From Chloroflexota bacterium (GTDB lineage Bacteria > Chloroflexota > Anaerolineae > Promineifilales > Promineifilaceae), in assembly GCA_024278255.1 (NCBI GenBank), contig JAJRTP010000396.1, positions 1 through 31,034 of the forward strand: a stretch of 31,034 nt of DNA, read 5' to 3'. Positions 2,026-31,000 of this stretch are shown in pieces. Positions within the stretch are counted from its first letter, which is position 1, and every line of letters starts with the position of its first letter. The notes beneath the pieces were generated by a model. The model did no database searches, had not been told where the DNA came from, and was given only the letters and a program-made list of their open reading frames with translations. Made by a program: the position numbers and the translations under genes.

Positions 2026-3357
2026 ATGGCGCTATCAAAAAGTGTTCCCGAATTTACGTCGCCGGCGTTTGCCCGCGATATTGTTTTATCCCCTACACTG
2101 CGCATCAATGAGCGGGTGAAGGCGTTGTGGGCAGCGGGGGAGACGGTGTACCATTTTGGCTTTGGCGAGTCGCGCTTTCCGGTGCATCCCAAATTACAGG
2201 CGGCGTTGGCGGCCAATGCCCACCGCAAGGGATATTTGCCGGTGCAGGGTTTGGCGGAACTGCGGGAAGCGATTGCGGCGTATGACGGCCGTATCCACCA
2301 CACCCCCATTTCCCCAGATCAAGTCATCGTTGGGCCGGGCAGCAAAGCCCTGATTTATGCTTTGCAGATGGCCCTGGCGGGGGATTTACTTTTGCCGACG
2401 CCGTCCTGGGTGAGTTATGCGCCGCAGGCGAAGCTGCTGGGCAAGCCGGTGCATTTTGTGCGGGGGACGGCCGTAAACGGCTACCAACTCACCATCGAAG
2501 CCCTGGATGGAGCAGTGCGGCAGGCGCAGAGTGAGACAAAAATATTGCTCATCAACAGTCCCAACAATCCGGCCGGCTACATGTTTGCCTCAGACTTTTT
2601 GCAGGAACTAGCCGATTACTGCCGCCAAAACCGGATTGTGGTGATCAGTGATGAGATTTACGCCAGAGTAGAACACGGTTTCACGCCGCACATCTCTCTG
2701 GCTGAGTTTTACCCGGAAGGGACGATTGTGGTGGGCGGCTTGAGCAAGCATCTCTCGTTGGGTGGCTGGCGGTTGGGGAAGGCGATTATTCCTAAAGAGC
2801 AGACCGCCTTGATGCCCGCTTTACGGACGATTGCCAGTGAAATCTGGTCTACAGCGACAGGACCGGTACAGTATACGGCCGTAACCGCCTACAGCAACGA
2901 CCCCGAAATTGAAGCCTACATTACCGAATGCACTCAAATTCACGCCGCCCGTACCCAACACATCTGGGGCATGTTTGACGAATTAGGCATGACTTGTCCC
3001 CAGCCCCAGGGCGGCTTTTATTTGATCCCCAACTTTGACCGCTGGCGGGAACCGTTGGCCCGGCGTGGCGTCCATACCTCAGAGGCGTTGGCCCATTACC
3101 TGTTGGAGGAGTATCATATCGCTTCCTTACCCGGCACTGCTTTTGGTGTACCCGCCGCAGAGATGTCTTTGCGTATAGCCACCAGCTATGTGGATATGGA
3201 AACAGATGAAGCAGCAGCCAACGTCCTGACTGCCTGGCGGCAAACACCGGACAAAGATGAGTTTATCAGCCAACACCAACCGAAAATGGCGCAGGCGCTG
3301 GAGCAATTTCGCAAGTTTATTTCTGATCTTGAGACCACGGATGGCAACGGATTTTGA
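2026..3357 (+). CDS. PLP-dependent aminotransferase, class I/II (AspC-like)
   Basis: INSPNNPAG, VISDEIY, GGLSK(H) PLP lysine and GWRLG motifs; ATG 2026 preferred over GTG 1984. Confidence 0.9.
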   Translation: MALSKSVPEFTSPAFARDIVLSPTLRINERVKALWAAGETVYHFGFGESRFPVHPKLQAALAANAHRKGYLPVQGLAELREAIAAYDGRIHHTPISPDQVIVGPGSKALIYALQMALAGDLLLPTPSWVSYAPQAKLLGKPVHFVRGTAVNGYQLTIEALDGAVRQAQSETKILLINSPNNPAGYMFASDFLQELADYCRQNRIVVISDEIYARVEHGFTPHISLAEFYPEGTIVVGGLSKHLSLGGWRLGKAIIPKEQTALMPALRTIASEIWSTATGPVQYTAVTAYSNDPEIEAYITECTQIHAARTQHIWGMFDELGMTCPQPQGGFYLIPNFDRWREPLARRGVHTSEALAHYLLEEYHIASLPGTAFGVPAAEMSLRIATSYVDMETDEAAANVLTAWRQTPDKDEFISQHQPKMAQALEQFRKFISDLETTDGNGF

Positions 3358-3414
3358 TCGATCAACACGGATTTTTAATCTGTGAAAATCCATGTATCTG
3401 TGCCCATCCGTGGT
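3334..3414. repeat. ACGGAT-type inverted-repeat element (REPIN/MITE-like)
   Basis: 11-bp terminal IR ACCACGGATGG (3334-3344) / CCATCCGTGGT (3404-3414) enclosing further ACGGAT/ATC(C/T)GTG units; contains the aminotransferase stop. Confidence 0.7.
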
Positions 3415-3427
3415 TCCCCATTACACC

Positions 3428-4270
3428 ATGATTGACATACGTCCCATCACAACTATAGAAGAAGCGCGGCACATTGAGCAGATTATTCAGGCAGCCTGGG
3501 GAGCCGACTGCCATATGGCTATACCGGACCACCTGACGATCACGATTGCGCGGGAAAATGGCGGGGTGGTTTTGCTGGCCTGGGATGGAGAGCGGCTGGT
3601 GGGATTTTGCCTGGGTTTCCTGTCTTATGTGGAAACGGATGGGGAAAAGCGGCTGAAGCATTGTTCCCACATGGCGGGGGTGATTCCTGAATATCGCGGC
3701 CGCCGGGTGGGGGAGATGATTAAGTGGGCGCAGCGGGATGCGGTGCTGGCGTTGGGCATTGACCACATCACCTGGACGTATGATCCGCTGGAAACGCTGA
3801 ACGGCCGTCTCAATATCCACAAGTTAGGCGCAGTTTGTAACACGTACAAACGAAATATCTATGGCGACGGCCGTGACAGCCTCAATTGGGGCGTGCCGAC
3901 AGATCGTTTCCAGGTGGATTGGTGGCTGGCTTCGGAGCGGGTGCGGGCGCATCGGGCGGGGACGCAGCAGCATTTGTCTTTTGCCGAGTGGCGGGCGCAG
4001 GGGGTGGCGGTGGTGAATGAGGTTACGGCCGTAGACAACATCTGGCATCCCGGCGAGGTTGACGACAAGCTGTTTGCCGCACAACGGCTGCTGGTTGCCG
4101 TGCCCCGCGATTACCAGCAGGTGAAAAAAGCCAGCGTGGAATTGGGCCTGACCTGGCGGCTGTATTCACGGGACATCTTTGAACGCGCTTTTGCCCGGGG
4201 TTTCGCTGTTACCGATTTATTGGTGACAGACTCTTTGTGCTATTACTTGCTGGAAAAATCTGCCCTGTAA
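3428..4270 (+). CDS. GNAT superfamily N-acetyltransferase (COG3375-like)
   Basis: SHMAGV.PEYRGRRVG acetyl-CoA motif; ITWTYDPLETLNGRLNIHKLGA...NIYG and TDRFQVDWWL typical of this family; ATG 3428 preferred. Confidence 0.85.
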   Translation: MIDIRPITTIEEARHIEQIIQAAWGADCHMAIPDHLTITIARENGGVVLLAWDGERLVGFCLGFLSYVETDGEKRLKHCSHMAGVIPEYRGRRVGEMIKWAQRDAVLALGIDHITWTYDPLETLNGRLNIHKLGAVCNTYKRNIYGDGRDSLNWGVPTDRFQVDWWLASERVRAHRAGTQQHLSFAEWRAQGVAVVNEVTAVDNIWHPGEVDDKLFAAQRLLVAVPRDYQQVKKASVELGLTWRLYSRDIFERAFARGFAVTDLLVTDSLCYYLLEKSAL

Positions 4271-4281
4271 ATAAAGGTCAT

Positions 4282-4302
4282 ATCTGTTCCTTTCTTCATC
4301 TG
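4282..4302. repeat. Dispersed repeat, exact reverse complement of 27385-27405
   Basis: ATCTGTTCCTTTCTTCATCTG vs CAGATGAAGAAAGGAACAGAT, 21/21 match. Confidence 0.8.
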
Positions 4303-4409
4303 TTGTAATCTTGCTTTACCCGTAAGATTCCTCACATTCATCCCCGACATTTGCGTTAAGGTAAGCCCGGAAACGAGCTAAGAAAACGTTAAGAGTGAAG
4401 CCGGACTGA

Positions 4410-4437
4410 TTGGTAACCGACCTGAATCCGTTATAAT
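4410..4437 (+). promoter_or_regulatory. Putative sigma70-type promoter
   Basis: TTGGTA (4410-4415), 16-bp spacer, TATAAT (4432-4437), 40 bp upstream of ATG 4478. Confidence 0.4.
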
Positions 4438-4477
4438 GCGGCAGTCGGGCAGGGTATGCTTGGCCGCAAGTGGTGAC

Positions 4478-5889: not shown

Positions 5890-5906
5890 TGAAAACGTCA
5901 ATCTCT

Positions 5907-6479
5907 GTGAAATATTTAGCCTTGATTCGCCACGCAGCGGTGCAGATTGAGCCGGATGTTCCGGCGGCCGAATGGCAGCTATCGGCAAACGGCCGTACCC
6001 TGACCCGCCAACTAGCCCCCCAACTCATCCCCTATCGCCTGAACCGTATTGTAACCAGCGTAGAACCAAAAGCGGTTGAAACCGGGCGGATTCTGGCTGA
6101 GGAATTGGGCCTGCCCTGGCAAACGGCCGTCAACCTGCATGAACATGACCGGCAAGGCGTACCGTACTTTGGGCGACATGAAGATTTTGTCACGGCCGTC
6201 ACCCGCTTCTTCACCCAGCCTGATGAACTGGTATTTGGCCGGGAAACGGCCGTACAAGCCAGAGATCGTTTTGTTACGGCCGTGAATCGCCAACTAATCG
6301 CCCATCCCCAGGAAAATCTCGCCCTCGTCGCCCACGGTACGGTCATCACCCTCTACCTTTGCCACACCAACCCGGATATAGACCCCGTCACATTTTGGCA
6401 AAAACTGGCAGACCCTGCCGCCTTCATCCTCTCCCTGCCGCAGAATAACCTCAAACACAGCCTGCCCACTGCCCACTGA
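5907..6479 (+). CDS. Histidine phosphatase (phosphoglycerate mutase-like) family protein
   Basis: LIRHA at the N-terminus, TSVEPKAVETG, LHEH and LVAHG motifs; GTG start. Confidence 0.85.
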   Translation: MKYLALIRHAAVQIEPDVPAAEWQLSANGRTLTRQLAPQLIPYRLNRIVTSVEPKAVETGRILAEELGLPWQTAVNLHEHDRQGVPYFGRHEDFVTAVTRFFTQPDELVFGRETAVQARDRFVTAVNRQLIAHPQENLALVAHGTVITLYLCHTNPDIDPVTFWQKLADPAAFILSLPQNNLKHSLPTAH

Positions 6480-11273: not shown

Positions 11274-11911
11274 ATAAACCGATTCGTATTTTAATTGTAG
11301 ACGATCACCCTGTGGTGCGGGATGGGCTGGTAGCGATTTTAAGTACCCAGCTTGATTTTGCCGTGGTAGGGGAGGCGGGCGACGGCCGTGAAGCGTTGGC
11401 CCAGGTGGCAGCTTTGCGCCCGGACGTCATCTTGCTGGATTTGGAGATGCCCCGGATGGATGGGGTAGAGACGCTGCGCCGCCTGCGCCAGTCGGATGCG
11501 GACGCTAAAGTGCTGGTCTTTACGGCGTATGATTCGGATGAGCGGATTGTGACGGCCGTGCAGGCTGGGGCGCAAGGCTATCTGCTCAAAGGCGCGCCGC
11601 GGCAGGAGTTATTTAACGCCATTCGCATTGTCGCCGAGGGCGGTTCGCTGTTGCAGCCCTTGGTCGCTTCCAAACTGATGCAGCGGGTCAGCCGGGAGCC
11701 GGAGTCGTTGTTTGAGCCGCTGACGCCGCGGGAGTTGGAAGTGCTGCAGGAACTGGCGCGGGGTCTGCAAAACAAGGAAATTGCCGCCAAACTGGTCATC
11801 AGCGAGCGCACCGTCAAGTTTCACGTCAGCGCCATCCTGGCTAAATTGGATGCGGGCAACCGCACGGAAGCGGTAGCCATTGCCGCCCAACACGGCCTGG
11901 TCAATCTGTAG
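11270..11911 (+). CDS. NarL/LuxR family response regulator
   Basis: ILIVDDHPVVR, LLDLEMP, GYLLK receiver motifs; LTPRELEVL...NKEIAAKLVISERTVKFH HTH; ATGA overlap with the kinase. Confidence 0.95.
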   Translation: MNKPIRILIVDDHPVVRDGLVAILSTQLDFAVVGEAGDGREALAQVAALRPDVILLDLEMPRMDGVETLRRLRQSDADAKVLVFTAYDSDERIVTAVQAGAQGYLLKGAPRQELFNAIRIVAEGGSLLQPLVASKLMQRVSREPESLFEPLTPRELEVLQELARGLQNKEIAAKLVISERTVKFHVSAILAKLDAGNRTEAVAIAAQHGLVNL

Positions 11912-11959
11912 AACGATTTTGTAAATCGTTCTTTGGGCGATTTGCAAAATCGCCCTACA
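11907..11959. repeat. GTAG-type REP doublet, family A, between convergent genes; possible bidirectional terminator
   Basis: TGTAG...CTACA enclosing AGAACGATTT-TGT-AAATCGTTCT and GGGCGATTT-GCA-AAATCGCCC; contains stop TAG 11909-11911. Confidence 0.85.
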
Positions 11960-11960
11960 C

Positions 11961-12986
11961 TTAAAAATCTCGTTGGAGGAGGAAGTCGGCCAGTTCGTTG
12001 AGGGTGGTATAGGCTGCGCCGTTGGGTTGGGCCGCTTCCAGATGGCCCTGGGCGCTTTGGGAGTAGGTGGTGGCTTTTTCGATGGCGTACTCGCGTGCCC
12101 CGCTTTCGTCCAGCAGGCGGATGGCTTCGGCGATAAAAGCGCCATCGGTGTTTTCCTGCCGGTAAAGTCGGCGTAGTTCGGCGCTTTGGCTGAGGCCGTA
12201 GAGGACGGGCAGGGTCTTCTTTTTAGTGGTAATGTCGCTGCTGGCCGATTTGCCGATGACGGCTTCATCCCCCCAAATACCCAGAATGTCGTCTTTGACC
12301 TGGAAGGCCAGCCCCAGTTCCAGGCCGAATTGGGCGTAGTGGCGCACGGTTGGGGCGTTGCAGCCGGCAATCAGGGCGCCCAGTTCAGTGCAGAGAGAGA
12401 TGAGTACGGCCGTTTTCCCCGTAATCATCTCGATATATTCATCTACCGTCACATTGTCCCGCGTTTCAAAATCCATGTCGTTAAACTGGCCGTGCGTCAG
12501 GTTGAGACAGGTCTCGTCAAAACGGCGTAAGGCTTGCACCGTAATGTCTGCCGGAACGCCGCGCTCCAGCAGGCGGCTCATGGCCAGGTGCGCCTGGGCA
12601 AACATGGCGTCCCCGGCGTTGATCGCCTGCTCAATGCCCCAGATCGTCCACAACGTTTTACGGCCGCGCCGGGTAGGGCTGGTGTCTTCAATGTCGTCGT
12701 GGATCAGGGAGAAGTTGTGCAGCAGTTCGATGGCGGCGGCGGCGGGGACGGCTTGCTGCCAATCCCCGCCGGCGGCCTGGTTGGTGAGGAGGAGGAGCAA
12801 CGGCCGTATCTGCTTCCCGGCGTGAACCTGCACCGGCTGCATCTGCTCATCTACCCAGCCCATGTGGTAATGATTCATGCCGAAAAATAAATCCGGCGTT
12901 GTGACACTGTCATATTGCAGCACAGCCTTCATCTCTTCGTTGATAGCTGCCCGCATATCTTCTGTTTTGGCAAGAATTTTTTGCAT
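11961..12986 (-). CDS. Polyprenyl diphosphate synthase (GGPP synthase, IdsA/CrtE-like)
   Basis: GKQIRP, FARM LIHDDIED + RRGR, GQFNDM, KTA, SARM FQVKDDILG, DITTKKKT. Confidence 0.93.
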   Translation of the reverse strand: MQKILAKTEDMRAAINEEMKAVLQYDSVTTPDLFFGMNHYHMGWVDEQMQPVQVHAGKQIRPLLLLLTNQAAGGDWQQAVPAAAAIELLHNFSLIHDDIEDTSPTRRGRKTLWTIWGIEQAINAGDAMFAQAHLAMSRLLERGVPADITVQALRRFDETCLNLTHGQFNDMDFETRDNVTVDEYIEMITGKTAVLISLCTELGALIAGCNAPTVRHYAQFGLELGLAFQVKDDILGIWGDEAVIGKSASSDITTKKKTLPVLYGLSQSAELRRLYRQENTDGAFIAEAIRLLDESGAREYAIEKATTYSQSAQGHLEAAQPNGAAYTTLNELADFLLQRDF

Positions 12987-12997: not shown

Positions 12998-13032
12998 TAG
13001 TTTCCCGGAAACTTCAAGTTTCCGGGAAACTA
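12998..13032. repeat. Perfect 16-bp palindrome between fni and the prenyl synthase gene
   Basis: TAGTTTCCCGGAAACT-TCA-AGTTTCCGGGAAACTA; contains the fni stop (CTA 13030-13032). Confidence 0.85.
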
Positions 13033-14091
13033 AATAAATTCCGTATAAAGCGGCGTTTCGGCCAGTGCTGGTAAATCCTTCGCGCCGCTGGCGAACATGG
13101 TGATGCGTAGTTCGTCGCTTAAAATTTCGGCCATTTCGATGACGCCGTCAACGCCATTCTGATCCGCTGCCCGCAAAAAGTCGCCGGCCAGACCGACCAG
13201 GTTGGCGCCCAGGGCGATACATTTGGCGACGTCAATGCCGTTGCGGATGCCGCCGCTGGCGAAAAGGGGCAGGTGGGGTGCCGCTTCCCGGCAGTATTGG
13301 AGGGATACGGCCGTAGGAATCCCCCAATCAATAAACGTGCTGGCTACCCGCGCATGGCGGGCTGTAGGGGCGCGGTACATCTCCACCTGGCTCCAGGACG
13401 TGCCGCCAGCCCCGGCCACGTCAATGGCGGCAATACCCGCATCCGCCAACCGCCGCGCCGCCTGCCGGGAAAATCCCCAGCCCACTTCTTTAGCGATGAC
13501 TGGGACGGGCAGCCGGGCGCAAATCTGCTCCGCCTTCGCCAGCAGATGGGCAAAATTGCCATCCCCTTCCGGCTGGACAGCTTCCTGCAGAACGTTGAAG
13601 TGCAAAATCAGGGCGTCAGCCTGACACATATCTACGGCGCGCTGGCATTCGTCCAAACCGTAGCCGTAATTGAGCTGCACTGCACCTAAATTGGCAAAGA
13701 GGAGAATGTCGGGGGCCACCTGGCGCACGTGGTAGGTGTCGGCCAGCGCGGGGTCTTCGATGGCGGCGCGCTGCGAACCCAGCCCCATCGCCATCCCTGT
13801 TTCCTGCGCGGCGGCAGCCAGTGTGCGGTTGATCTCCCTCGCTTCGGGCGTGCCGCCGGTCATGGAGGAGATGAGCAGCGGGGTACGCAGCCGCTTGCCG
13901 AAGATTTCCGCGCTTAAATCTATGGTGCCCAGGTCTAATTCCGGCAATGCCTGGTGCATGAAGAAATATTTTTCCAGCCCGGTGGTAAGCTGGTTAAAGG
14001 CGACGTCTTCTTCCAAATTGATGCGAATGTGATCCGCCTTGCGCCGCTCGTGAATGGCGTCATCGGCCGGCGGGTCCATGATTGCGCTCAT
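13030..14091 (-). CDS. fni: Type 2 (FMN-dependent) isopentenyl-diphosphate delta-isomerase
   Basis: [67 protein letters not shown]. Confidence 0.96.
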
Positions 14092-14331
14092 AAATTGACT
14101 CCGTTTTTCCTTTTCGGATTGCTTGCCGGGAGTATACTATGCCGTGAACTGAATGGCGAGAAAAAGAGAGTGACGGCCGTTATCCTTTGCCATCTTGTGT
14201 TCAGACAACGTGTAAGCCACGTCTGCTATACATTCTCTGGTTATGTGCCTGTGGGATTCGCCGCGACTCATTTGCCGGGTTACAATTCACGGGCGCGCTT
14301 TGTGAGATGGTTCAAATTGCCCTTAACAACT

Positions 14332-14383
14332 TGTAGGACGATTTTGCAAATCGTCCAGGGGCGATTTACAAAATCGCCCTACA
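14332..14383. repeat. GTAG-type REP doublet, family A, copy 2
   Basis: TGTAG...CTACA enclosing GGACGATTT-TGC-AAATCGTCC and GGGCGATTT-ACA-AAATCGCCC. Confidence 0.85.
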
Positions 14384-14447
14384 AAGTGTCAATCTGCTGA
14401 ACCATCCTAGATTTAACAGCGATTTTTCACCTATATTTGGAGGCAAC

Positions 14448-15389
14448 ATGCGCATTTTAATTACGGGAGCGGCCGGATTTTTAGGCTCCCACCTGAGTGA
14501 CAGATTTATTGAGGAAGGCCATACCGTGGTGGGTATGGACAATTTGATTACGGGCAATATGGATAACATTGTCCATCTGATGGGGCATGAGCGGTTCAGC
14601 TTTATTAGGCAGGACGTGAGCAATTACATTTATGTGGCGGGGCCGCTGGATGCGATTTTGCATTTTGCCTCGCCGGCCAGTCCCAACGATTATTTGGAGT
14701 ATCCCATCCCCACCTTAAAGGTAGGCTCTCTGGGGACGCATAACACACTGGGTTTGGCGAAGGCGAAAGGGGCGCGGTATTTGTTGGCCTCTACGTCGGA
14801 GGTGTATGGCGACCCGCAGGTGAACCCGCAGCCGGAGACGTATTGGGGGCACGTGAACCCGATTGGGCCGCGCGGCGTGTATGACGAGGCGAAGCGTTTT
14901 GCCGAGGCGATTACCCTGGCCTACCAAAGGTATCACGGCCTGGAAACGCGGATTGTGCGTATTTTTAACACGTATGGCCCCCGGATGCGGCTGAATGACG
15001 GCCGTGTCGTACCCAATTTCATCCGCCAGGCCTTGTTGGGCGAACCGCTCACCGTCTATGGGGATGGCAGTCAGACACGTTCCTTTCAGTATTACAGCGA
15101 TCTGGTCGAGGGCATTTACCGCCTGCTCCAGTCCGACGAGAAGCTGCCGGTCAACATTGGTAATCCCTCGGAGATGACTATCTTGGACTTTGCTCATGAG
15201 GTCGTGGAAATTGCCGGTAGTAACTCGGAGATTGTGTTTGTCCAGCCTAAGGATGAACGATTTACGGACGATCCCAAAATGCGCCGGCCGGACATCAGCA
15301 AGGCGAAGCGGGTGTTGGGCTGGGAACCGAAAGTGTCTTTGGCTGATGGCTTGGCGGAGACGGTGGCGTATTTTCGGGATAAGGTTTGA
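14448..15389 (+). CDS. UDP-glucuronic acid decarboxylase (UDP-xylose synthase) family extended SDR
   Basis: [51 protein letters not shown]; RBS GGAGG upstream of ATG. Confidence 0.93.
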
Positions 15390-18866: not shown

Positions 18867-19000
18867 TTCGCGTAGTATCACATTGAACTTACATTGCAGT
18901 ACCCAAAAAATGAATAAGGGTAAAAATTCTTTAGCATCCTTACAACCATGCGGCTTTTCATCATCGGGATGTGTATCCTCATTTAGAGGAGGAGAAGGAA

Positions 19001-22000
19001 ATGTCCGCAAACGGCAATCTGTTTCGGGGCATCCTAAAGCTAAAGACATTATGTGTGGGTGGAGATTTCAGTAAAACGCCAACTGATCTGCCGTCTACAC
19101 AATTTCCCGGCAATGTCCTGAGGCATACGGACGTGTTTCAATTTTACATTGAGACCAGGTATGATGAAGCGCTAGACATCATCATTGCCAACCGGGATAT
19201 TGACCTGGTTTTTCTGGATGCTGATTATGATTCCCTGACCGAAATCACCACTTTTATGACTCAGGCCAGGGAAATACGGCCGAAATTACCCATCGTATTA
19301 TTTACCAGCGATAGTGATGATAAAATGCGCCACCTCATGCGTGAGGGGGCCACCTGGCATTTTGTCAAAAACTCTGAGGTGATTACGTCCCTCAATTCTC
19401 AAGTACACGACCACGTTTATTCCCCCATAGATTGGCCGGAAATTTTTGTCCAATATGCCAGCGATTCTCTGAAACCCCGCATCGAACCAGGCTTGAGCTA
19501 CACGGATTTGGAAGCGCTTTCCCAGAATCCGGAAGAGCGGTACATTATCAAGCGGTTGTTTGCCGACAGTGATGTGGTTCAGATTTTTCGCATGGATGAG
19601 GGGTTTAGCGGTTCGCGTATTTACACGGTTAAACCGGCGCACCAGCTTAAACGCATTCTGAAAATTGATGTAGCCGACCGGCTGGAAGCGATTCAGGAGA
19701 AACAGGAACGACTGATTCAACCGCGCCTCAACCGGCAGGTAGGGCAAATTCAGGGCAAACTGGTGCGCGGCGAACATCTGGCGGGGGCCTGTTACGCCCT
19801 GGCCGGCTCTTACCGGGACGCCATCACTCTGACCCAGTTTCTGTTGAATCAGAACCGGGTACGCAAAGAGTTGATTGACAAGATTCTGGAGCAGTTACGC
19901 ATCAGCCTGGAGCAGTTGTACGCGGGCAGCTCGGATACGGAACTACGTTATTGGGCGCCCCTCTATGCCCGCGTCCTGCCCACACATTTGACACTGGCCG
20001 ATGCCGTTCTGGTGGAGCCGGATGAGATGGCGGCTGATTTTGTGGTGTCGGCCGAATCGTTTAACACCCTGTCGGCCGTTCCCGGCAATCCGACGCTCCA
20101 GCAAATTAACCAAGCTGCTCGGCAGGGAGAGGAACCATCACTCATTTTGCATGGCTTTGAAGTGGCTGAAGTGGATTCGCGGGCCGGGACGATTTATCTG
20201 CATGACGATCTCATGGCCCGTTATCCGATTTCCTCGCTGCTCAAGGATAAAAACCACCCGATTATGCGGTTTAAGGTGCATTTGCAGGATGCGGATCAAT
20301 CCTGGCTGGCGCATCCGGCTTTCCGGCGGGGTAAGCGGGTGAGTGTGCGGGGCCGGGTGGTGGCTACCCAGGAGACGATCATTGGGGATAATATTACGGA
20401 GGTGACGGGACGGCCGTTTGACTATGACTCCGACGTGCTGGAACTGGCTTCCGGCCGGTTTATCTCCCCCATTGCCAACGTGCGCAGCCTGCTTTGGGAG
20501 GTGGGCCGGGAAGATATGATCGTGCCCATTCCCCAACTGTCGCCGGTGGTGCATGGCGATCTGAATACCAGCAATATCCTGGTGGAGATCAGCGATGAGA
20601 TGCCTCTCTGGCTCATTGACTTTTCCGATGCCCGCCCCGGCCACGTTTATTTTGATCTGGCCAAGTTGGAAGTGGAGTTTCGTACCCACGTCCTTTACCG
20701 CCTGTACAAGGAGATGGTGGACGAGGGCATCTGGGATGTGGACACGGCGACCAAATTTGCTCTGCTGGTGGAAAATGTGCTGATGCTGACGGCCGTCAAC
20801 GATTTCTCCGATTTCATTACCACTCTGCGTGATTACCAGCCGGAATGGTACGACAATTTATACACCCAGTTCCCCCTCTATTCCGAAAACCTGCTCTACT
20901 TCCTCCACTCCCTGCGCCAGATTGCCGAAACGTACAGCCCGGAACGGTTCAAATACCATTATCCGGTAGCGGTCTTTTTCCAGAGCATCTCGGCGCTCAA
21001 ATTTAAGCGGCTGGATGACGCCCCCTGGCATCCCTGGGCCAAACGGCTGGCCCTGTGCGCGGCCGTTGTGGCTGGCAAACAAGCCATCGAAGGTGTGGAT
21101 CGCCCGCCGGAACTGGACGACGTGTACAGCGGGATGCGCCAGCGCAGCGCCTTTGCCGTGATTACGGTAGGCAGCGGCGGCGACCGGAAATATCTGGTGC
21201 AGTGGAATGAAAACTGGAATATGTACAATCTGGTCGGCGGCCGTTTGAATAACGTCAAAGGGGACAAGGATTCCTTTGCCCGGGCCATCCAGCGGGAACT
21301 GCAAGAGGAGTTGGGCCTGGTCAGTCCCAAGGATTACCGTATCGTGCGGGAATATAAGCCAGTCTACGAGCGGCAGTTTTCCCGCCGGGAATTTGTCTTT
21401 AAGGATTATGAGTTCCGTGTATTCCAGATTGAGCTGCTGCCCCGCCATCCCATCACGCCGGAAGAGTATGAATGGTACGCCAACCGCTTTGACACGGAAC
21501 GAGAGAATATTCTGGTGTCGCGGGCGGAGATTGAACGGCTGCGCACGACGGATAATTTGCCCATCTCGGATACAACACGGATGATTTTGCAGGAGTTGGG
21601 GGAGATTACGGCCGTAAGTTCCGACGACATGCTGCTTTCTTTGGAATTTGAACTGGAGAGCGATGAAGTCGTGGTCAGCCGGGGGCGGGGGCAGGTGTTA
21701 GGCCGTTTGACCAATCCTCGCTATGGTGGCCTGGTGGAGAATGTGACGCTGGAAGTGCTGCCGGCCAATGGATACGAGACAGAGCAGGATTCGGCCGTTT
21801 TGCAGTTAGGCAAGCTGAACGCAGGCGACGTCTGCCCCATCTCCCTCTGGTTGCAGCCCAAAGAAAAACATGCCCGCCTGAAACTACGCTTTACCTTTTA
21901 TGATGCCCGGGGCAAAGAATACCGGCAAACGGTAGAAAAAAGCCTGGAATTCAAGACCAATACCCGCGCCCTGTTCCATATTGACAATCCTTACGTTGTC

Positions 22001-23194
22001 GGTAAACCGCTTACCCCGGCCTCTGAAGATTTGTACGTGGGCCGGGAAGATGTGTTCATGTGGATTGAGGAAAATTTGCTGGGTAAAACCCAGCCGCATA
22101 CCCTGATTCTCTACGGTCAGCGGCGTATGGGGAAAACATCTACGCTGTATCAATTAGTGGGCGGCCGGCGGGGCCAGACTATTCGTGAATATCCCGGCTA
22201 CCCCATCTTCCCGGCATACATTGATTTGCAGCGCTTGGCCGGCTGTGACACGCCGGAATTTATGGCCCGATTGAGCCAGCAAATCATCCGCAATCTGGCT
22301 AGACGCGGCATCAAAATCACACCGCGGGAGTCCTGGTCGGCCAATGGCACAATTTTTGGTCAGTTTGATGAATTTCTGGATCGGGTAGAGGAAAAGCTGC
22401 CGCAAAATGGGCTGCTGGTACTGGTGATTGATGAGTTGGAGCAGATGCAGGCGAGTATTGAAAACGGCCGTCTCAGCCCCGATATTCTGCCTTACTTGCG
22501 TTCCCTGATGCAGCATCGTACGCAGTTGACTTTTATTTTGGTGGGAACCAACCAATTAATGGAAGATTATTGGAGTACGATTTTCCATGTGGGCATCAGC
22601 CGGGAAATTGGTTCGTTGAGCCGGGAAGATACGGAACGCCTCATTCGGGAACCGGTTTCGCCCATGATCCAGTACGACGATCTGGCCGTAGACCGCATCT
22701 GGCTGGCGGCACGGGGCCACCCTTATTTCAGCCAGCTTTTGTGCCACCGGCTGATCAGCGCCGTCAATCTGGAAGGCCGCCACAGCAAGATCATCACCAT
22801 TACCGAAGTGCGCGATATGATTAACCTGGTGATTGATGAGGATGACAGCCATCTTCAGCATTTATGGAATGAAAGCAGCCGGGAAGAGCAGTTTATTCTG
22901 GCTTCCCTGGCAGGGACGCAGGAAGTGGGCGAAGAAAATGTATCCCGTTCAGAAGTGTTGTCTCGCCTGCGCGGTGCTTCCATTGAGGATGACACGGTAC
23001 GCATGGCTTTGAACCGGCTGGAAACGCGCCGCCTGGTGACGCGCACCCCGGTGGAACGCCAGATTCAACGCCGGTTATCACAGCCGGGCGGCTGGCAGCC
23101 CACGCTGGTCAGTAAGGATTATGCGTATTCGATTTCGTTTGATTTGTTGCGAAAATGGGTGGCGAAGAAACACCCGTTGGGTTCGCTTTTATAA
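19001..23194 (+). CDS. 1397-aa multidomain protein: REC - kinase/phosphotransferase (TCAD9/APH-like) - NUDIX - Ig-like - STAND/AAA ATPase - wHTH-like
   Basis: RBS GAGGAGGAG before ATG 19001; REC VFLD (19217), LFTS, FVK; GFSGS (19601), LKID, HGDLNTSNILV (20552), LIDF; RELQEELGL (21293); NPYVVGKP, GQRRMGKTS (22115), LVIDE (22421-22435), GHPYFSQLLC. Confidence 0.85.
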   Translation: MSANGNLFRGILKLKTLCVGGDFSKTPTDLPSTQFPGNVLRHTDVFQFYIETRYDEALDIIIANRDIDLVFLDADYDSLTEITTFMTQAREIRPKLPIVLFTSDSDDKMRHLMREGATWHFVKNSEVITSLNSQVHDHVYSPIDWPEIFVQYASDSLKPRIEPGLSYTDLEALSQNPEERYIIKRLFADSDVVQIFRMDEGFSGSRIYTVKPAHQLKRILKIDVADRLEAIQEKQERLIQPRLNRQVGQIQGKLVRGEHLAGACYALAGSYRDAITLTQFLLNQNRVRKELIDKILEQLRISLEQLYAGSSDTELRYWAPLYARVLPTHLTLADAVLVEPDEMAADFVVSAESFNTLSAVPGNPTLQQINQAARQGEEPSLILHGFEVAEVDSRAGTIYLHDDLMARYPISSLLKDKNHPIMRFKVHLQDADQSWLAHPAFRRGKRVSVRGRVVATQETIIGDNITEVTGRPFDYDSDVLELASGRFISPIANVRSLLWEVGREDMIVPIPQLSPVVHGDLNTSNILVEISDEMPLWLIDFSDARPGHVYFDLAKLEVEFRTHVLYRLYKEMVDEGIWDVDTATKFALLVENVLMLTAVNDFSDFITTLRDYQPEWYDNLYTQFPLYSENLLYFLHSLRQIAETYSPERFKYHYPVAVFFQSISALKFKRLDDAPWHPWAKRLALCAAVVAGKQAIEGVDRPPELDDVYSGMRQRSAFAVITVGSGGDRKYLVQWNENWNMYNLVGGRLNNVKGDKDSFARAIQRELQEELGLVSPKDYRIVREYKPVYERQFSRREFVFKDYEFRVFQIELLPRHPITPEEYEWYANRFDTERENILVSRAEIERLRTTDNLPISDTTRMILQELGEITAVSSDDMLLSLEFELESDEVVVSRGRGQVLGRLTNPRYGGLVENVTLEVLPANGYETEQDSAVLQLGKLNAGDVCPISLWLQPKEKHARLKLRFTFYDARGKEYRQTVEKSLEFKTNTRALFHIDNPYVVGKPLTPASEDLYVGREDVFMWIEENLLGKTQPHTLILYGQRRMGKTSTLYQLVGGRRGQTIREYPGYPIFPAYIDLQRLAGCDTPEFMARLSQQIIRNLARRGIKITPRESWSANGTIFGQFDEFLDRVEEKLPQNGLLVLVIDELEQMQASIENGRLSPDILPYLRSLMQHRTQLTFILVGTNQLMEDYWSTIFHVGISREIGSLSREDTERLIREPVSPMIQYDDLAVDRIWLAARGHPYFSQLLCHRLISAVNLEGRHSKIITITEVRDMINLVIDEDDSHLQHLWNESSREEQFILASLAGTQEVGEENVSRSEVLSRLRGASIEDDTVRMALNRLETRRLVTRTPVERQIQRRLSQPGGWQPTLVSKDYAYSISFDLLRKWVAKKHPLGSLL

Positions 23195-23214
23195 TTATTT
23201 GGGGATTTTGGAGT

Positions 23215-24537
23215 ATGTCATACATTGTTGGTCATCCTATAAAAAGACCTTCTGATTTTTACGGCCGTTCCTCTCAGGTCGCTCGTTTTTATGAAATTAT
23301 TGGGGGTACTCAGGCCCAGTCTGCCAGCGTTTTGGGTGTGCGCCGGGCTGGGAAAACATCTTTTTTGCAATATGTCGCCCATCGCAGCATCAAAGCCAAA
23401 TACTTGCGTGAGCCGGACAACTACACCATGATTTACATCAACATGTCCACCTGCAAAAAACCAGCCGATTTCTATTACGGCTTGCTGCGCCGCCTGCAAT
23501 ACTCGCTGGGCGTGGCCGAAACCGGCTTTTTGTGGAAAGAATCGCCCCCCAACGCCACCAGCATGTATGACGTGGAGGCATTCCTCTGCCAATTTCCGGA
23601 GCGGCGCATCATTCTTCTTCTGGATGAGTTTGACCAAATTCGGGTAGACACTTTCTCTCAGGAATTTTTGACCGAACTGCGGGCCATGACTAGCGTGCTG
23701 GACTATGATTTGGCTTTTGTCACGGCCTCTTACTGGGATTTGTACTATTTGGGTACCCAAATAGGGCTGCCGCCGACGTCACCTTTTTACAATATTTTTT
23801 ACCCGACACCCATTTACATTCCCGGATTGGAGGAGAGCGAGATTGATACGCTCATCCAAAAACCAGCGGCAGAAGAGGGTTTCCCTTTTTCCGCGGAGGA
23901 TGTGGCGCAGATTAAGCAGTTGGCAGGATCGCTGCCGTTTTTTGTGCAGGCTACGGCCGCTTATTGGCTGCGCTGCCGCAAAAGCGAATATACACCTGAC
24001 CCGGAGCAAGCCCGGCAAATTTTAGTCGGCGAATTGTCGCCTTATTTTGAACAATGGTGGCGCTCTTTTGATAACGGCTACAAAGAAGTGCTGCGCTGCA
24101 TTGCCGATAATCTTGACCTGTCTATTTTGCCTTACAGTCCGGTAGAAGTTCAGGAAGCTGTCCGTATTTTGGGTAATTATGGCATGGTGGTGCGGGAAGA
24201 CGGCCGTCTGTCCATCAACGGCGATATTTTTGTTTTATGGGTGCAGCAGTACGCCCAACTGGCCGAACAAAGACAAACACTTCACATGCCGAATAACGGG
24301 CAAAACAGGCAGAAAAATAACGTAACTGATCCGGCCAAACTGCGTCTGGTCCTGACCGATTATTTCAGTCTGGAAGATTTGCAGGCGCTTTGTTTTGATC
24401 TGGGTCTGGATATTGATGATTTTCCTGGCACCAGTAAGCAGGCCAAAGCCATCGGGCTGATCGAATATTGGCGTAACCGGCGCGAATTGGGTCGTCTTGT
24501 TCAGGCCATTCGCCAGGAACGTGGTGCTATTGTGTAG
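23215..24537 (+). CDS. STAND/AAA ATPase with C-terminal effector-associated domain (EAD7-like)
   Basis: VGHP...FYGR, Walker A GVRRAGKTS (23335), Walker B LLLDEFD, AGSLPFFVQ; C-terminal LRLVLTDYFSLEDLQALCFDLGLDIDDFPG..K..KA..LIEY...R..LGRLVQAIRQER (24328-24534). Confidence 0.8.
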   Translation: MSYIVGHPIKRPSDFYGRSSQVARFYEIIGGTQAQSASVLGVRRAGKTSFLQYVAHRSIKAKYLREPDNYTMIYINMSTCKKPADFYYGLLRRLQYSLGVAETGFLWKESPPNATSMYDVEAFLCQFPERRIILLLDEFDQIRVDTFSQEFLTELRAMTSVLDYDLAFVTASYWDLYYLGTQIGLPPTSPFYNIFYPTPIYIPGLEESEIDTLIQKPAAEEGFPFSAEDVAQIKQLAGSLPFFVQATAAYWLRCRKSEYTPDPEQARQILVGELSPYFEQWWRSFDNGYKEVLRCIADNLDLSILPYSPVEVQEAVRILGNYGMVVREDGRLSINGDIFVLWVQQYAQLAEQRQTLHMPNNGQNRQKNNVTDPAKLRLVLTDYFSLEDLQALCFDLGLDIDDFPGTSKQAKAIGLIEYWRNRRELGRLVQAIRQERGAIV

Positions 24538-25137: not shown

Positions 25138-25614
25138 ATGATGGAACCGAAACCACCTGGTGAATCTTGTGTAACGTTGACTCAGTTGATGGGGCCGAGC
25201 CATGCCAACACGATGGGTAATGTGCATGGCGGCATCATTATGAAGTTGTGTGATGAGGCGGGCGGCATGGCGGCGGTACGTCACGCGCGGCACACGGCCG
25301 TCACCGTCACCGTAGACTCCATGACCTTCCACTCCCCGGTACACATTGGCAATTTGATGATGGTCACAGCCGAAGTGGTCTGGACGGGACGCACCTCGAT
25401 GGAAACGCGGGTGGTGGTGCGCGCCGAAGACGTGCTGACCGGGGAAATCACCCACACCAATACGGCCTATTTTGTCTACGTGGCGCTGGATGAAAACGGC
25501 CGTCCCACCCCCGTGCCCCCGCTATTGTGCGAAACTGAAGAAGAAAAACAACGCTGGGAACGGGCCGCCCAGCGCCAGGCCTATCGTTTACAGCAGCGCC
25601 AGGAAACCCTATGA
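25138..25614 (+). CDS. Acyl-CoA thioesterase, HotDog fold (YciA-like)
   Basis: ANTMGNVHGGIIMKLCDEAGG, AVTV.VD...F.SPV.IG, GRTSME, A.FVYVALDE.GRP.PVP; start 25138 or 25141. Confidence 0.92.
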   Translation: MMEPKPPGESCVTLTQLMGPSHANTMGNVHGGIIMKLCDEAGGMAAVRHARHTAVTVTVDSMTFHSPVHIGNLMMVTAEVVWTGRTSMETRVVVRAEDVLTGEITHTNTAYFVYVALDENGRPTPVPPLLCETEEEKQRWERAAQRQAYRLQQRQETL

Positions 25615-26747
25615 CCCAACCCAAATCCAAACTCCTTGACATCCTGCTGACCTCACCTGCCGGACAAGTCACATCTTTGCCTGTGCCAGACGTTGGCGTC
25701 GCCCAGATAGAGCCATTCCCCTTTTTAGCTATTGTCAACCAGTACGAGATGAAGCTGGCCCTGGTACTGTCTTTGATCAATCCTCTGGTCGGCGGCGTTT
25801 TGCTGATTGGCCCGCGGGGGACGGCCAAGACAACGGCCGTGCGCGCTTTAGCCGATCTCCTGCCCCACACCCGGCGCAGCCTGTGCGCTTATGGCTGCAC
25901 TGAGGAGATGATTGAAACCTACGGTATGGATGGCGTATGTAAAGATTGCGCCGCCAAATTTGGCTACGGCGAGCCGCTCACTGTCGAGGATAAAGTTCGC
26001 ATCTTTGAACTGCCCCTTAACGCCCGCCTGGATGACGTGGTGGGCGGCATCAATGAACGGCTGGCGCTGGAGCAAAACAAAGTGCGCCTGGAACGGGGTA
26101 TCCTCGGCCACGCAGACCGGCATATCCTTTATATTGATGAGGTCAATTTGCTGGACGACACCATCACCGACGCCATTTTGGATGCGGCGGCGCAGGGCCA
26201 TTACACCGTGCGCCGCGGCCCGCTGAAGATGACTTACCAGGCGCGGATTATGCTCATCGGCTCCATGAACCCGGAAGAAGGCAAGCTGCGGCCGCAGTTG
26301 ATGGATCGCTTTGGTTTACGGGCCATTGTGCGCGGCCTGGAGGAACCGGAACTGCGTTATCAAGCGTATGAACGAGCGTTGGCTTACAAACAGCATCCCG
26401 AACTATTTGCCGCCTCTTACGCCGCCGCCACGCTGGCCCTGGCTGATGATATTCAAGAGGCGCGGGATCGGCTGCCACAGGTCACCATCCAGCCGGAGGC
26501 GCAGGCCTTGGGTCTGGAACTGGTTGCCAGCTTGCAGATTGATTCTAATCGGGCAGAAATCACCCTGTTTGAAGCCGCCCGCGCCCACGCCGCCGCCGAT
26601 GAACGCCTGGAAGTAACCACAGCGGATGTGGAGGCGATAGCCACATTGGCCCTGCGCCTGCGCCAAAGCCCGCATTTGACTCAATTCTTTGCGGAACAGG
26701 CGGCGGAAGATGAAAAGATGCGGGCTGTTTTTGCCAAGAGAGGGTGA
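25611..26747 (+). CDS. Magnesium chelatase subunit I (BchI/ChlI)-like AAA+ ATPase
   Basis: FPFLAIVNQYEMKLAL, GGVLL.GPRGTAKTT, LPLNA..DDVVG, LYIDEVNLL, GSMNPEEG.LRPQLMDRFGL; ATGA overlap with the thioesterase. Confidence 0.88.
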   Translation: MTQPKSKLLDILLTSPAGQVTSLPVPDVGVAQIEPFPFLAIVNQYEMKLALVLSLINPLVGGVLLIGPRGTAKTTAVRALADLLPHTRRSLCAYGCTEEMIETYGMDGVCKDCAAKFGYGEPLTVEDKVRIFELPLNARLDDVVGGINERLALEQNKVRLERGILGHADRHILYIDEVNLLDDTITDAILDAAAQGHYTVRRGPLKMTYQARIMLIGSMNPEEGKLRPQLMDRFGLRAIVRGLEEPELRYQAYERALAYKQHPELFAASYAAATLALADDIQEARDRLPQVTIQPEAQALGLELVASLQIDSNRAEITLFEAARAHAAADERLEVTTADVEAIATLALRLRQSPHLTQFFAEQAAEDEKMRAVFAKRG

Positions 26748-27497: not shown

Positions 27498-27529
27498 GAA
27501 CCATCTAATTTCTGGTTTAAGGGCCGTTA

Positions 27530-27769: not shown

Positions 27770-27909
27770 TGACCTAATCTCCTTCCGGTTTTGATAATTT
27801 TCATTAAGAATGAATTGCGGGGCAATTTTAGAACCAACGTCTAAAAAGTCAAGCGGTTGGCTGGATTGCCATAGAGAAAAACACAAAATTGGGGGGGAAG
27901 TTACGCGGT

Positions 27910-28026
27910 TTGTAGTCTTGTAGTCGGGTAGTCGTTAGTCTTGTAGTCGGGTAGTCTGGTAGTCTGGTGGTTGTTAGTCAGACTACTTGACTACTCGACT
28001 ACCCGACTACTCGACTACTCGACTGC
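27910..28026. repeat. Octamer tandem arrays in inverted orientation: (NNGTAGTC)n then (GACTACNN)n
   Basis: About 7-8 units at 27910-27979 facing 5-6 units at 27981-28026; contains stop 28007-28009 on the minus strand. Confidence 0.9.
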
Positions 28027-31000
28027 ATTCCAGCCACACGGCCGTACCCAGCATCAAATAAAACAAGAAAGCCAAATCCACCAAAAAGAAACTGTGGTCT
28101 ACCAGGCCGTGTGCCACCATATTAATGAATGCGGCGGCAAGGCCTACTGCTACCGGGAACCAGACGGCCGTAACCTTGCTCCAACTGCGCCAAAGAGAAC
28201 GAACCAGCGCGGCCATCATCCACAACCCGGCCGCCAGCCCCAGCAGCCCCAGCCGTGTGCCAAAATCCAGGAAGATGTTGTGCGGATGGCTCAAGTTCGG
28301 GTCGCGCCACGCTTCGGCAAAAATGTACCGTCCCCGGTAGGCGTACAGGAAATTGTCCAACCCTACGCCAAAGAGAGGGTGTTCCCTAATCATTTCCAGA
28401 CTGGCCTGCCACAGTTTCAGGCGGAAGAGGCCGGTTTCGCCAAATAGCCCCAGCCGTCCCGCCAGCGCCGGGGTTTGCTGGATGGCGAACAGCCCGGCAA
28501 TGCCTAATCCGGCAAAAGCGGCCAACCAGGGCCAGGTGCGACGGCCGTTACGCCGCTGCCACTGCCAAAAAACAAACAATAAGGCTGCCGGTAAGCCCAG
28601 AAAAATCGCCCCTTTGCTGAAGGTGAGTAACGCTGCCAGCCCGATGGGGAGCAATGCCGCTCCGTACAGCCAACGACGACGGCCGTTTTCCTGCACTCCC
28701 AGCAGCAGCATCGCCGCCAGCAAGGGAATGATGCGCCCCAAAAAGAGGGCCACGTTGTTGGGCGAGCCGTAGATGGATTTGATCCGCAGCAAACCGCCTT
28801 CGGCCGTAATCAGGCTGCTCCGGTCAAAGCCGTACTGGTACAGGCCAATCAGGGCAATGACCAGGCCGGCCATTACGACCGCATCCAGAATCACCCACAT
28901 TTCCGATGATTTCAGGCGTAGGGCACGCAGCATCAGGTAAAAGAGGGCCGGCTCCAGGATGACGATGCGCCATTCGTTGCTGGCTACGTCCAGGCGGGCG
29001 GTGAAGAGAAGAGAGAGGGTAGCGACGGCCGTAAAAGCCAAAACCGCGTAATCAGCCATGTGCCACGTGGTGCGTGAGGCGTGATGCGTGAGGCGTGAGG
29101 CGCGGCGGACGAGTTGGTGGAGGAGGAAGGTGGCGAAGGTGACGAGGGTGAAAACTTCAACGGGAGAGAAGCGGTATTGGAAGACCGGTTTGAGGACGGG
29201 CGGGACGTAGAAGGGGATGGAAAAGGCGATCAGGGCCAATCCCCAGGCGGGGCGCAGGGCGATGAGGATGAAGAGGACAATGAGGGTGGCGGTCATGAGG
29301 AGGAAGGTGGGAGAGATGTAGAAGATGGAGGCGGCCACGGCCGTCAGCGCCAACTGCCCGCCATCCCGCAAGCGACGATACACGCCGCCTGCCTGATCTG
29401 CCCAGGTCAGCCAGCCGGCAATGGTCACCAGGGCGGCCGCGCCAAAGGTGAGGAGAAGCTGCGCGCTCTTGTCCAGCGCGCCGTATCGTTCCCGCATCTG
29501 GCGGAACCAGCCCGGCCAGTCTGCCCGCCGCCAGCTTCGCATAGCCAGTATAAGAGACAAAACGGCCGTACCCAACAATCCCCACGTCGCCCAAACCGCC
29601 CAGCGATCTGAGGGATGGTAGGCTACACTGAAACCGTTTAATGCCCATTGATCCCAGCCGCGTGAACCGACGATGACGGCCGTATGCACCCCCGGTTCCA
29701 GATTTTCGGCTACCGGTTCAATGGCTAAATAATCGTCTTCTTTGAGCGGGGAGGTGAGAACCAGCATGGCGCCGTATTCGTCGCGGGGCAGGGCGTTGGC
29801 GGGACGGCCGTCAATCGTCACGTACAGCCGGGCGCGGTAATTGGCCCGGCGCACCCGCAGCCCCAAATCTGTGCCCCAAAAGGTAAACGTCACCTTGTCC
29901 CCAAAAATTGCCTCCTCCGGCTGGGGACTCATATCCGCGCCAAACTCCGGCGAAAAACGCCAGTCACCTTCGTAAACCTGTGCCGGGTCGTCTGGCGTGG
30001 CAAAGTGAAAGCCGGGAAAAGCGATATTGGGGGATTGGTCAATAGCCAACATCCCATTATCCAATCTCTCTTTCACACTAAATCCCCAAACCGGATCATC
30101 ATTCGCCGCGTCCGGTTCCCAGTTTTCCAGGAACATGAGACCCATCCAGGGCCACTCTTTTTGGGTGCGTTCCAGGGCGGCGCGGGTGTAGGCGGCTTGT
30201 TCGTCGGCGCTGACGTCTCCCCAGATGGACGGCCGTCCCGTCCAGTCGTCCGGCAGCGCATTCCAGCCCCAATTGCCGGCCCACAATGCTTTACGGCCGT
30301 CTCCGTTCCGCTCCATCACCTCCCGCAGCAGAATCGCCCGGCTGAAATTGGTCGTGTTAATGTCCACGTCGCGGTCATCGGGACCGGTGTGGAAGCCGTA
30401 AGGTTTGGCGGCAGCCACGTCAAAGGCATCAGCCGCGCCCGCCTCGTACATTTCCTGCAAGTAGAGAGGATCGGCCAGGTTGTCGGGGCCGGTTTCGACG
30501 GTGGGGGCCAATGGTGCAGCTACGATAACGGCGTCAGGGTCGGCGGCGCGGATGGTTTGGGCTGCGGCCGTGAGCAAAGCCGCATATTCGGCCGGGTTGA
30601 CAGGCTGGTTGCCCCAATGCGTCGTCAGGTTCGGCTCGTCCCAGATGATGTAATACTGGATTTGGTCGCCATACCGCCGGGCAAATTCGCCGGCCCACTG
30701 CGCGAACTCGTTGGGGTCGGCCGGCGGAGCAAAACCGTCGGCCGGATTGCCGTCCAGCAGGGGAACCAGCGTTAAACCTTGCTCACTGGCCGCCTGCGCC
30801 AGCCGACCCGCCTCTGCCCAGTCAAAATCCGGGGCAAGATAAAACGGCTGCTTGATGAACTGAACGCCCATCCCGCCGATTTGCGCCAGATTTTCTGCCA
30901 ATTCTGCGTCGTCGTACTGGTTCAGGGTGACGTTGAGACCTATTTGCGCCCCGGCATGAGCTATCGGCGGCGGCAACCCTTCCGGGATACCCCGTGTCAG

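Follow-up and report, generated by a model that had tools for sequence, protein, structure and literature searches.

Positions 1–31,034 of contig JAJRTP010000396.1 of a Chloroflexota bacterium (assembly GCA_024278255.1), referred to as the window, carry a highly repeated eight-letter palindrome, ACGGCCGT (the word). The window contains 67 exact copies, whereas shuffles that preserve dinucleotides yield 0.84 on average and never more than 4. An initial annotation, made from the sequence of the window, had counted at least 67 copies by hand between 2285 and 30300 and had expected about 0.8 in 31 kb; the count is exactly 67, the end coordinates are identical, and the shuffles give the same expectation. 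Its GC content of about 57% is close to that of the window (56%) but not to that of the whole genome (54%). The genes that host the word are mutually unrelated, encoding an aminotransferase, a peptidase/TPR protein, a histidine kinase, a response regulator, a polyprenyl synthase, glycosyltransferases, STAND NTPases, and O-antigen ligases. The span, representative copies, and their surroundings are as follows (the frame of the first copy is taken from the start of the open reading frame, ORF).

2285–30300, genes of both strands and spacers: span with all 67 copies of ACGGCCGT, about 1 per 420 bp
2255–30330, + strand: mirror-image composition zones; 3–30 nt before a copy G is 0.374 and C 0.227, after a copy G is 0.223 and C 0.359 (window, G 0.293 and C 0.270)
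2285–2292, aminotransferase gene 1984–3357 (+): first copy, starting at codon position 2, xAC GGC CGT, read as x-Gly-Arg
6123–6130, histidine-phosphatase gene 5907–6479 (+): copy in frame, ACG GCC GTn, read as Thr-Ala-Val
12406–12413, polyprenyl synthase gene 11961–12986 (-): copy in frame on the minus strand, read as Thr-Ala-Val
14173–14180, spacer of the divergent genes 13030–14091 (-) and 14448–15389 (+): copy outside genes
30293–30300, gene of a large membrane protein with an O-antigen-ligase domain, 28007–31033 (-): last copy

The window's assembly (G000; 4.80 Mb in 733 contigs, 54% GC, 83.6% completeness) contains 8497 copies of the word, or 1 per 565 bp, compared with about 98 expected from base composition. 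The word is the top 8-mer of the genome, 2.5 times as frequent as the next; the runners-up overlap it, and the next palindromic 8-mer has 577 copies. All contigs of at least 8 kb carry it, at 0.34–3.3 per kb. With genes from our own simple longest-ORF caller (4105 genes, 87% coding), 7747 copies (91%) lie in genes, at 1.85 per kb, and 750 lie outside, at 1.20 per kb. The genic copies use all three reading frames (3956, 2602, and 1189) and the host genes of the window lie on both strands, as the initial annotation had claimed. It had also claimed that codon bias is insufficient. In accordance, shuffling synonymous codons within each gene, which keeps the protein and the codon usage, gives 994 ± 26 copies against 7756 observed in genes (7.8-fold), and shuffling the codon order gives 148 ± 7 (52-fold). 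The excess, some 50–90 times above chance or codon usage, thus neither vanishes under a codon-preserving null nor is confined to the window, the two outcomes that had been set out as refutations.

The gaps between copies are near random (coefficient of variation 1.06 vs 1.02), with a shortage below about 30 nt; regular spacing is therefore rejected. The identity of the word as a repeat of the repetitive extragenic palindrome (REP) or miniature inverted-repeat transposable element (MITE) type is rejected as well, since 91% of the copies are genic and their flanks vary independently. Positions 1–2284 of the window, which include the gene of a 519-aa DUF11-domain protein (319–1878), are without the word. 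Given near-random spacing, this 2.3-kb start is by itself insignificant.

All eight letters of the word are needed, jointly. In G000, the CGGCCG core is about 2.6-fold enriched without the correct outer letters, about 5-fold with one correct outer letter, and 86-fold as the full word, indicating that the two halves of ACGGCCGT act together. Variants with one letter changed at an inner position have 30–146 copies, at or below expectation; those changed at an outer position have 341–735. Directly outside the word are two A/T-rich positions followed by G at −4/−3 (about 0.5 each), with C mirrored after the word. The initial annotation had centred the system on CGGCCG: the core is indeed enriched, but every one of the eight letters counts, and in related genera the outer letters or the core itself differ. 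Nearly all 6-bp palindromes other than CGGCCG are avoided in G000, with observed/Markov-expected ratios of 0.04 for ACGCGT, 0.07 for GTGCAC, 0.12 for CGATCG, and 0.08 each for GGGCCC, CTCGAG, and GAGCTC. This avoidance suggests a long history with many restriction systems.

The word leaves an imprint on proteins, as had been noticed in the window. In particular, Thr-Ala-Val occurs 4098 times in G000 against 585 expected (7-fold), and 3960 of these occurrences (97%) are encoded by ACGGCCGT, while the same residues permuted (Val-Ala-Thr and Ala-Thr-Val) stand at 0.8 of expectation. Asp, Asn, His, or Tyr followed by Gly-Arg is 2.6–3.9-fold enriched. In a codon alignment of RpoB, several word-rich genera carry the word together where other genera hold unrelated codons (e.g., column 3515), and other copies fall on conserved Gly-Arg pairs.

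Sister species keep the word at the same sites. In a 210-kb alignment (85.9% identity) of G000 with G001, a genome of the same genus, 350 copies are common, 52 are found in G000 only, and 42 in G001 only. Accordingly, 87–89% of the copies are kept, compared with 36.6% of all 8-mers unchanged, which answers the check on orthologous sites proposed in the initial annotation. Where a copy is not common, the partner word is mainly one transition off, and the letter changed is usually the first or the last.

Of 30 relatives, the only ones in which the word is abundant belong to the window's own family. The family survey comprises 121 species genomes, which are metagenome-assembled and of uneven completeness, some relatives being sampled over 47–200 kb only. 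About half of them (62 of 121) have ACGGCCGT at 1000 per Mb or more, up to 2100, and the word is present in most genera. The named carriers are 'Ca. Leptofilum sp.' (Promineifilaceae, NCBI taxonomy) and 'Ardenticatenaceae bacterium'; because the former is among them, the family is probably Promineifilaceae. In an RpoB tree, which is a quick tree of a single gene with several unresolved forks, the family forms one clade (SH-aLRT, the approximate likelihood ratio test, 100) with G016 inside. The early-branching G007, G002, and G004, weakly resolved, already hold ACGGCCGT at 160–680 per Mb, and ACGGCCGT-poor genomes are scattered across the family. The word probably arose at the base of one Chloroflexota family.

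Several members of the family write other words. G013 has 7669 copies of TCGGCCGA, which has the same core with the outer pair swapped, and its RpoB gene has TCGGCCGA where relatives write TCGGCCGT, TCGGCCGG, or TCGGCCGC. G016 has 8850 copies of TGCCGGCA, which is ACGGCCGT read backwards, and TGCCGGCA is found in all five species of genus g31 (3639–6775 copies each). The basal G007 has a looser form, W-CGGCCG-W, with 276, 205, 181, and 50 copies for the four A/T combinations. CGGCCG is enriched with other outer letters in G002 and G010, and GCCGGC is enriched in G018. No iterated word was found in G015. In all, there are at least three sharp dialects and one loose form in one family.

The dialect of G016 is accompanied by a purge of GGCC. 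No ACGGCCGT was found in the sampled 400 kb of this genome, where GGCC is about 12-fold depleted (128 copies); TGGCCA has 180 copies in 4.9 Mb, many of them within a single stretch, about 13 kb long, of contig C1. Among five genomes compared, only G016 shows the purge, which accompanies the replacement of a CGGCCG word by a GCCGGC one.

The DNA on either side of the word is skewed in mirror image. The strand before each copy is G-rich and C-poor, and after the copy the reverse is true. The skew holds in all three frames with the genes oriented alike and so belongs to the DNA itself rather than to coding. The antisymmetric G-C skew of third codon positions declines from 0.39 at 3–9 nt to 0.27, 0.17, 0.11, 0.07, 0.04, and 0.02, reaching 0 at 220–300 nt; it is 0.13 at first and 0.055 at second codon positions. 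At four-fold degenerate sites 3–9 nt from the word, base frequencies on the incoming strand are G 0.65, C 0.14, T 0.11, and A 0.11, compared with a background of G 0.36, C 0.37, T 0.17, and A 0.11. Therefore, G gains from both C and T, and there is no A/T skew.

The skew belongs to each lineage's own word: ACGGCCGT in G000 and G007, TCGGCCGA in G013, and TGCCGGCA in G016. It was found neither at one-letter variants and seven other palindromes in G000 nor at CGGCCG, GCCGGC, and TGGCCA in G015. Between the sister species, it is 0.11–0.12 at common copies. At G001-only copies it is 0.024 in G001 and 0.015 at the matching G000 sites; at G000-only copies it is 0.09, and the matching G001 sites, which do not have the word, still show 0.065. 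This contrast between young and old copies indicates that the skew builds after the word appears and outlasts its loss.

Five origins or associates of the skew were considered and rejected. A hairpin or cruciform is not consistent with flanks that vary independently and whose complementarity is no greater than their composition predicts. An oriented Chi-like motif in the flanks should stand out, and no k-mer exceeds compositional expectation by more than about 1.6-fold. Okazaki-fragment priming does not explain why both flanks are skewed within one 400-kb stretch of G016, assumed to be a single replichore. If the skew were a precondition of the word, near-equal shares would be expected at the three codon positions, but third:first:second is about 7 : 2.4 : 1, and young copies are skew-free. 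Cytosine deamination predicts a gain of T at four-fold sites, which is not seen.

Silent divergence distinguishes, to some extent, how the skew is made. Four-fold sites were compared around copies common to G000 and G001 (one species pair, about 570–1050 sites per near bin). Divergence is 0.226 at 3–9 nt, 0.29–0.30 at 9–60 nt, and 0.29–0.32 beyond 100 nt. For G<->C differences, the three nearest bins give 0.028, 0.053, and 0.050 and the more distant ones 0.057–0.066. At equilibrium, a raised C->G mutation rate would increase G<->C differences to about 0.10; their fall is predicted instead if the G->C rate is lowered or if fixation is biased, by selection or by biased gene conversion. Since divergence is not raised and G<->C differences fall near the word, fixation bias fits better than extra mutation; the result is suggestive, not final. 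The mutational process that the initial annotation had envisaged therefore fits poorly, as silent sites beside the word diverge no faster than others.

The closest known relative of the word is the highly iterated palindrome HIP1 (GCGATCGC) of cyanobacteria with its alternate highly iterated palindromes (HIPs; Elhai 2015, PMC4390886; Xu et al. 2018, PMC5861425). HIP1 is likewise a palindromic octamer with a GC-rich core, the top 8-mer at about 1–2 per kb, found in genes and spacers beyond codon bias, deviating at its first and last letters, and conserved in place; some related cyanobacterial lineages have swapped it for another palindrome. ACGGCCGT shares these properties, being a codon-independent top 8-mer with outer-letter deviations, orthologous conservation, and alternate palindromes in relatives. 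The initial annotation was thus right to call it HIP1-like, with an excess that is genome-wide, frame-independent, beyond codon bias, and conserved at orthologous sites. It is not HIP1 proper, since the word differs and both the relatives and the named matches are Chloroflexota; in G000, GCGATCGC has only 6 copies and CGATCG is avoided. Further differences are that no cognate methyltransferase could be tied to ACGGCCGT, that at least three sharp dialects and a loose form occur in one family, including an outer-letter swap on the same core, and that the flanks are skewed, while the published HIP1 papers searched describe no such skew. Our literature search found no paper on ACGGCCGT or on HIPs in Chloroflexota, in agreement with the claim that the octamer had not been described as a HIP. 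ACGGCCGT is a second-phylum counterpart of the unexplained cyanobacterial HIP1.

We tentatively favour the following account, to which we give somewhat less than an even chance: the word is a HIP-type palindrome written at the level of DNA by a site-started, strand-polar process. A lineage-specific protein would read the exact 8-bp word and start a DNA transaction, most simply a nick or a break. The strand leaving the word 5' to 3' would be removed and resynthesised, and the strand running into the word would serve as template or invading strand. Mismatches in the processed DNA would be settled with a bias that resembles selection, as in biased gene conversion. Such a bias would keep, and perhaps spread, the word itself, and would gradually enrich the incoming strand's silent sites in G, at the cost of C and T, over about 200 nt. 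Shifts in the specificity of the reader between lineages would give the dialects TCGGCCGA, TGCCGGCA, and W-CGGCCG-W, and the process would attain its top word densities in genomes without the end-processing enzyme AddAB. Of the origins offered by the initial annotation, a methylation-linked mutational or repair process or DNA uptake/recombination, a repair- or recombination-linked bias is retained in this account as the best reading, and the methylation link and the mutational half are not.

An alternative of low but appreciable probability is a methylation-directed mismatch-repair ratchet, as proposed by Elhai for HIP1. A methyltransferase would mark CGGCCG, a MutH-like nickase would read the methylated base together with an outer letter, and misdirected repair would complete the word. 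This model fits the concentration of deviations at the first and last letters (341–735 vs 30–146 copies), which is also seen for HIP1 (PMC4390886), and its two components suit a core that is enriched family-wide with varying outer letters. All five genomes tested have MutL, whether they carry the word or not, and G000 has several N4/N6 methyltransferases. C5 methyltransferases (PF00145) were not found in G000 or in the word-rich G005, G009, and G012, of which G009 and G012 are near-complete, and MutH was not found in the five genomes tested. Vsr (PF03852) is present in G001, G016, and G018 only, always next to a C5 methyltransferase. In G016, the sole C5 enzyme resembles M.HhaI over its full length and forms with Vsr an orphan pair between housekeeping genes. 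The resemblance suggests a GCGC specificity and not the genome's own word, so the pair offers no explanation for TGCCGGCA.

The N4/N6 methyltransferases (PF01555) are numerous but patchy, and none is common to all word-rich genomes. Typical full-length PF01555 proteins are absent from G003, G004, G007, G008, and G010; the PF01555 enzymes of G000 have orthologues in few relatives, one of them with an orthologue in a word-less outgroup. The five genomes tested for NucS yielded weak partial matches only, in G009 and G019. In all, none of C5 methyltransferase, Vsr, MutH, NucS, and RecC follows the distribution of the word, and the methyltransferase that the initial annotation had postulated for the CGGCCG core did not emerge, with neither C5 enzymes nor Vsr in G000, G009, and G012 and with patchy N4/N6 enzymes. 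The word may nevertheless be methylated by an unrecognised enzyme. Two further points speak against the ratchet: the 'GmC' rule misfits a word whose first C follows A or T, and misdirected repair of replication errors should raise nearby divergence, which is not raised. The likeness to very-short-patch repair (Dcm/Vsr, which shifts CCWGG-related counts in E. coli), in which a site-specific nick and a short patch bias the abundance of a palindrome and its near relatives, is limited in the same way. Most word-rich genomes have neither Vsr nor C5 methyltransferases, and the effect here is orders of magnitude larger.

Similarly unlikely, in our estimate, is that the word is a selected 'self' or uptake signal, either a DNA-uptake sequence or a tag against a host nuclease, which phages copy and of which the skew is a separate by-product. 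Sixteen IMG/VR viral loci carry 0.8–4.1 copies per kb, with the G at −4/−3 kept and a long-range skew of only 0.01–0.02, and viral contigs at up to 3–4 per kb exceed the host density, as such a signal would predict. In the Neisseria DNA uptake sequences (DUS) and Pasteurellaceae uptake signal sequences (USS), a density of about 1 per kb, genome-wide spread resembling molecular drive, and lineage dialects recall the word; dialects would serve as lineage barriers. Two recent reports connect HIP1 with transformation efficiency and type IV secretion genes (bioRxiv 10.1101/2024.09.10.611283; PMC13756078). On the other hand, the uptake sequences described so far are non-palindromic and have no known amino-acid changes on such a scale. 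A signal of this kind gives no reason for a strand-polar skew that begins exactly at the word, and the near-random spacing shows nothing of an optimised one. We know of no mirror-image skew at DNA uptake sequences.

Local hypermutation, in which a nick at the word would expose single strands or start error-prone patch synthesis and so make the skew by mutation alone, is improbable. Its strand geometry fits, and a decay over tens to about 200 nt resembles the lengths of repair patches. However, silent divergence is not raised near the word (0.226 at 3–9 nt vs about 0.30 far off), G<->C differences are halved there, and the missing T gain at four-fold sites leaves no signature of cytosine deamination.

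More improbable still is that the word acts as a palindromic Chi-like hotspot read by RecBCD or AddAB, with the incoming strand spared as the 3' tail. Chi is also an exact, lineage-specific, and over-represented short word at which incoming and outgoing strands are treated differently; on the 5' side of Chi the strand is retained while its complement is degraded and synthesised anew, a geometry that matches the mirror flanks. But known Chi sites are asymmetric, oriented with replication, and about ten times rarer, they do not reshape proteins, and the flanks of the word contain no discrete oriented k-mer. RecC was not found in the five genomes tested. Of 31 relatives compared, only G002, G004, G007, and G015 have the addB-addA operon, and neither AddB nor long PD-(D/E)XK ORFs were found in the word-rich genomes, including near-complete ones. 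The operon is thus missing where the word is rich and present mainly where it is poor.

The family survey gives the same picture. AddB was found in 28 of the 121 genomes, whose best word has a median density of 125 per Mb, compared with 1229 per Mb in the remaining 93. A density of at least 1000 per Mb is reached by 2 of the 28 AddB-positive genomes and by 59 of the 93 others (Fisher 6e-8, with no phylogenetic correction); a rank test at the genus level gives p = 0.0085. In genus g36, densities are 465–512 per Mb in the three AddB-positive species and 921–1290 in four of the five others.

That the word is an artefact, whether of codon usage, amino-acid composition, repeats, or assembly, is supported by nothing except the high use of codons ACG, GCC, GGC, and CGG and is refuted by the 7.8-fold and 52-fold excesses over the codon nulls, by the presence of the word in spacers, in all frames, and on every contig of at least 8 kb, and by the 62 of 121 family genomes at 1000 per Mb or more.

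Several observations weigh against the site-started, strand-polar process that we favour. The strand geometry is deduced from base composition, and the reader protein is postulated. Selection on the composition of the flanks and biased gene conversion would leave the same fixation-bias signature. That the bias puts G on the incoming strand is no simple consequence of the known blind spots of MutS in the strand-invasion schemes considered. Because viral copies are dense (3–4 per kb) and skew-free, the enrichment of the word and the skew may have separate causes. As for AddAB, the AddB-positive G093 and G041 have dense words, and G007 shows the flank skew despite having AddAB; AddAB is thus at most a modifier. 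The AddAB link is tested against phylogeny at the genus level only, and incomplete genomes can hide the gene.

The sign change of the skew has a formal parallel in the reversals of GC skew at origins and termini of replication and at recombination hotspots of mammals, where the sign also changes at a defined point and the incoming strand is G-rich. Here, by contrast, each genome has thousands of such reversals, each at an 8-bp word; they fade over about 200 nt and, at four-fold sites, come with no A/T skew.

A parallel to the AddAB link is suggested by published tables on cyanobacteria. Among these, recC and the full recBCD set are found only in marine Prochlorococcus and Synechococcus (PMC5101192, tables), and the marine Prochlorococcus/Synechococcus clade is the one without abundant HIP1 (Elhai, PMC4390886). 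RecBCD may thus relate to HIP1 as AddAB does to the word. By extension, although we consider it rather doubtful, HIPs in general could be entry points of an undescribed, site-started, strand-polar recombination or repair pathway. Such a pathway would act as biased gene conversion, write its own 8-bp word, flip its specificity as restriction enzymes do, skew about 200 nt on each side, and flourish without AddAB (Promineifilaceae) or RecBCD (cyanobacteria). If this were true, the 30-year-old puzzle of HIP1 and ACGGCCGT would have one mechanism.

In the literature searched, HIPs are confined to cyanobacteria, where they stand unexplained about 30 years after their description. A second phylum provides natural experiments that cyanobacteria lack, namely dialects, a loose and ancestral-looking form, and a word-free lineage in one family. 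It also adds a word-specific footprint in the flanks, which resembles fixation bias and accumulates after the word appears. The inverse link to AddAB, and apparently to RecBCD in cyanobacteria, is a testable lead to the pathway. In practical terms, the word distorts protein composition (Thr-Ala-Val 7-fold), and as a signature it could also aid metagenome binning and the assignment of phages to hosts.

Some other features of these genomes are recorded here. In G016, a very large CRISPR-like array occupies positions 1156129–1186891 of contig C2 (about 31 kb), in which a repeat of about 37 nt occurs 421 times, with a period of 72–75 nt. In the window, two adjoining large NTPase genes of the conflict-system type lie at 18971–24537. 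The first encodes 1407 aa with TCAD9, NUDIX, and AAA domains, and the second encodes 460 aa with nSTAND1 NTPase and EAD7 effector-associated domains; close by, at 25611–26747, lies a MoxR-like AAA gene. A REP- or MITE-like intergenic repeat is present at 11905–11960 and 14330–14392, each copy consisting of two adjoining hairpins with a GNCGATTT...AAATCGNC stem each. A BLAST search of the two copies against G000 gives 111 and 65 matches on 88 and 56 contigs, respectively, and many copies are present in G001 too.

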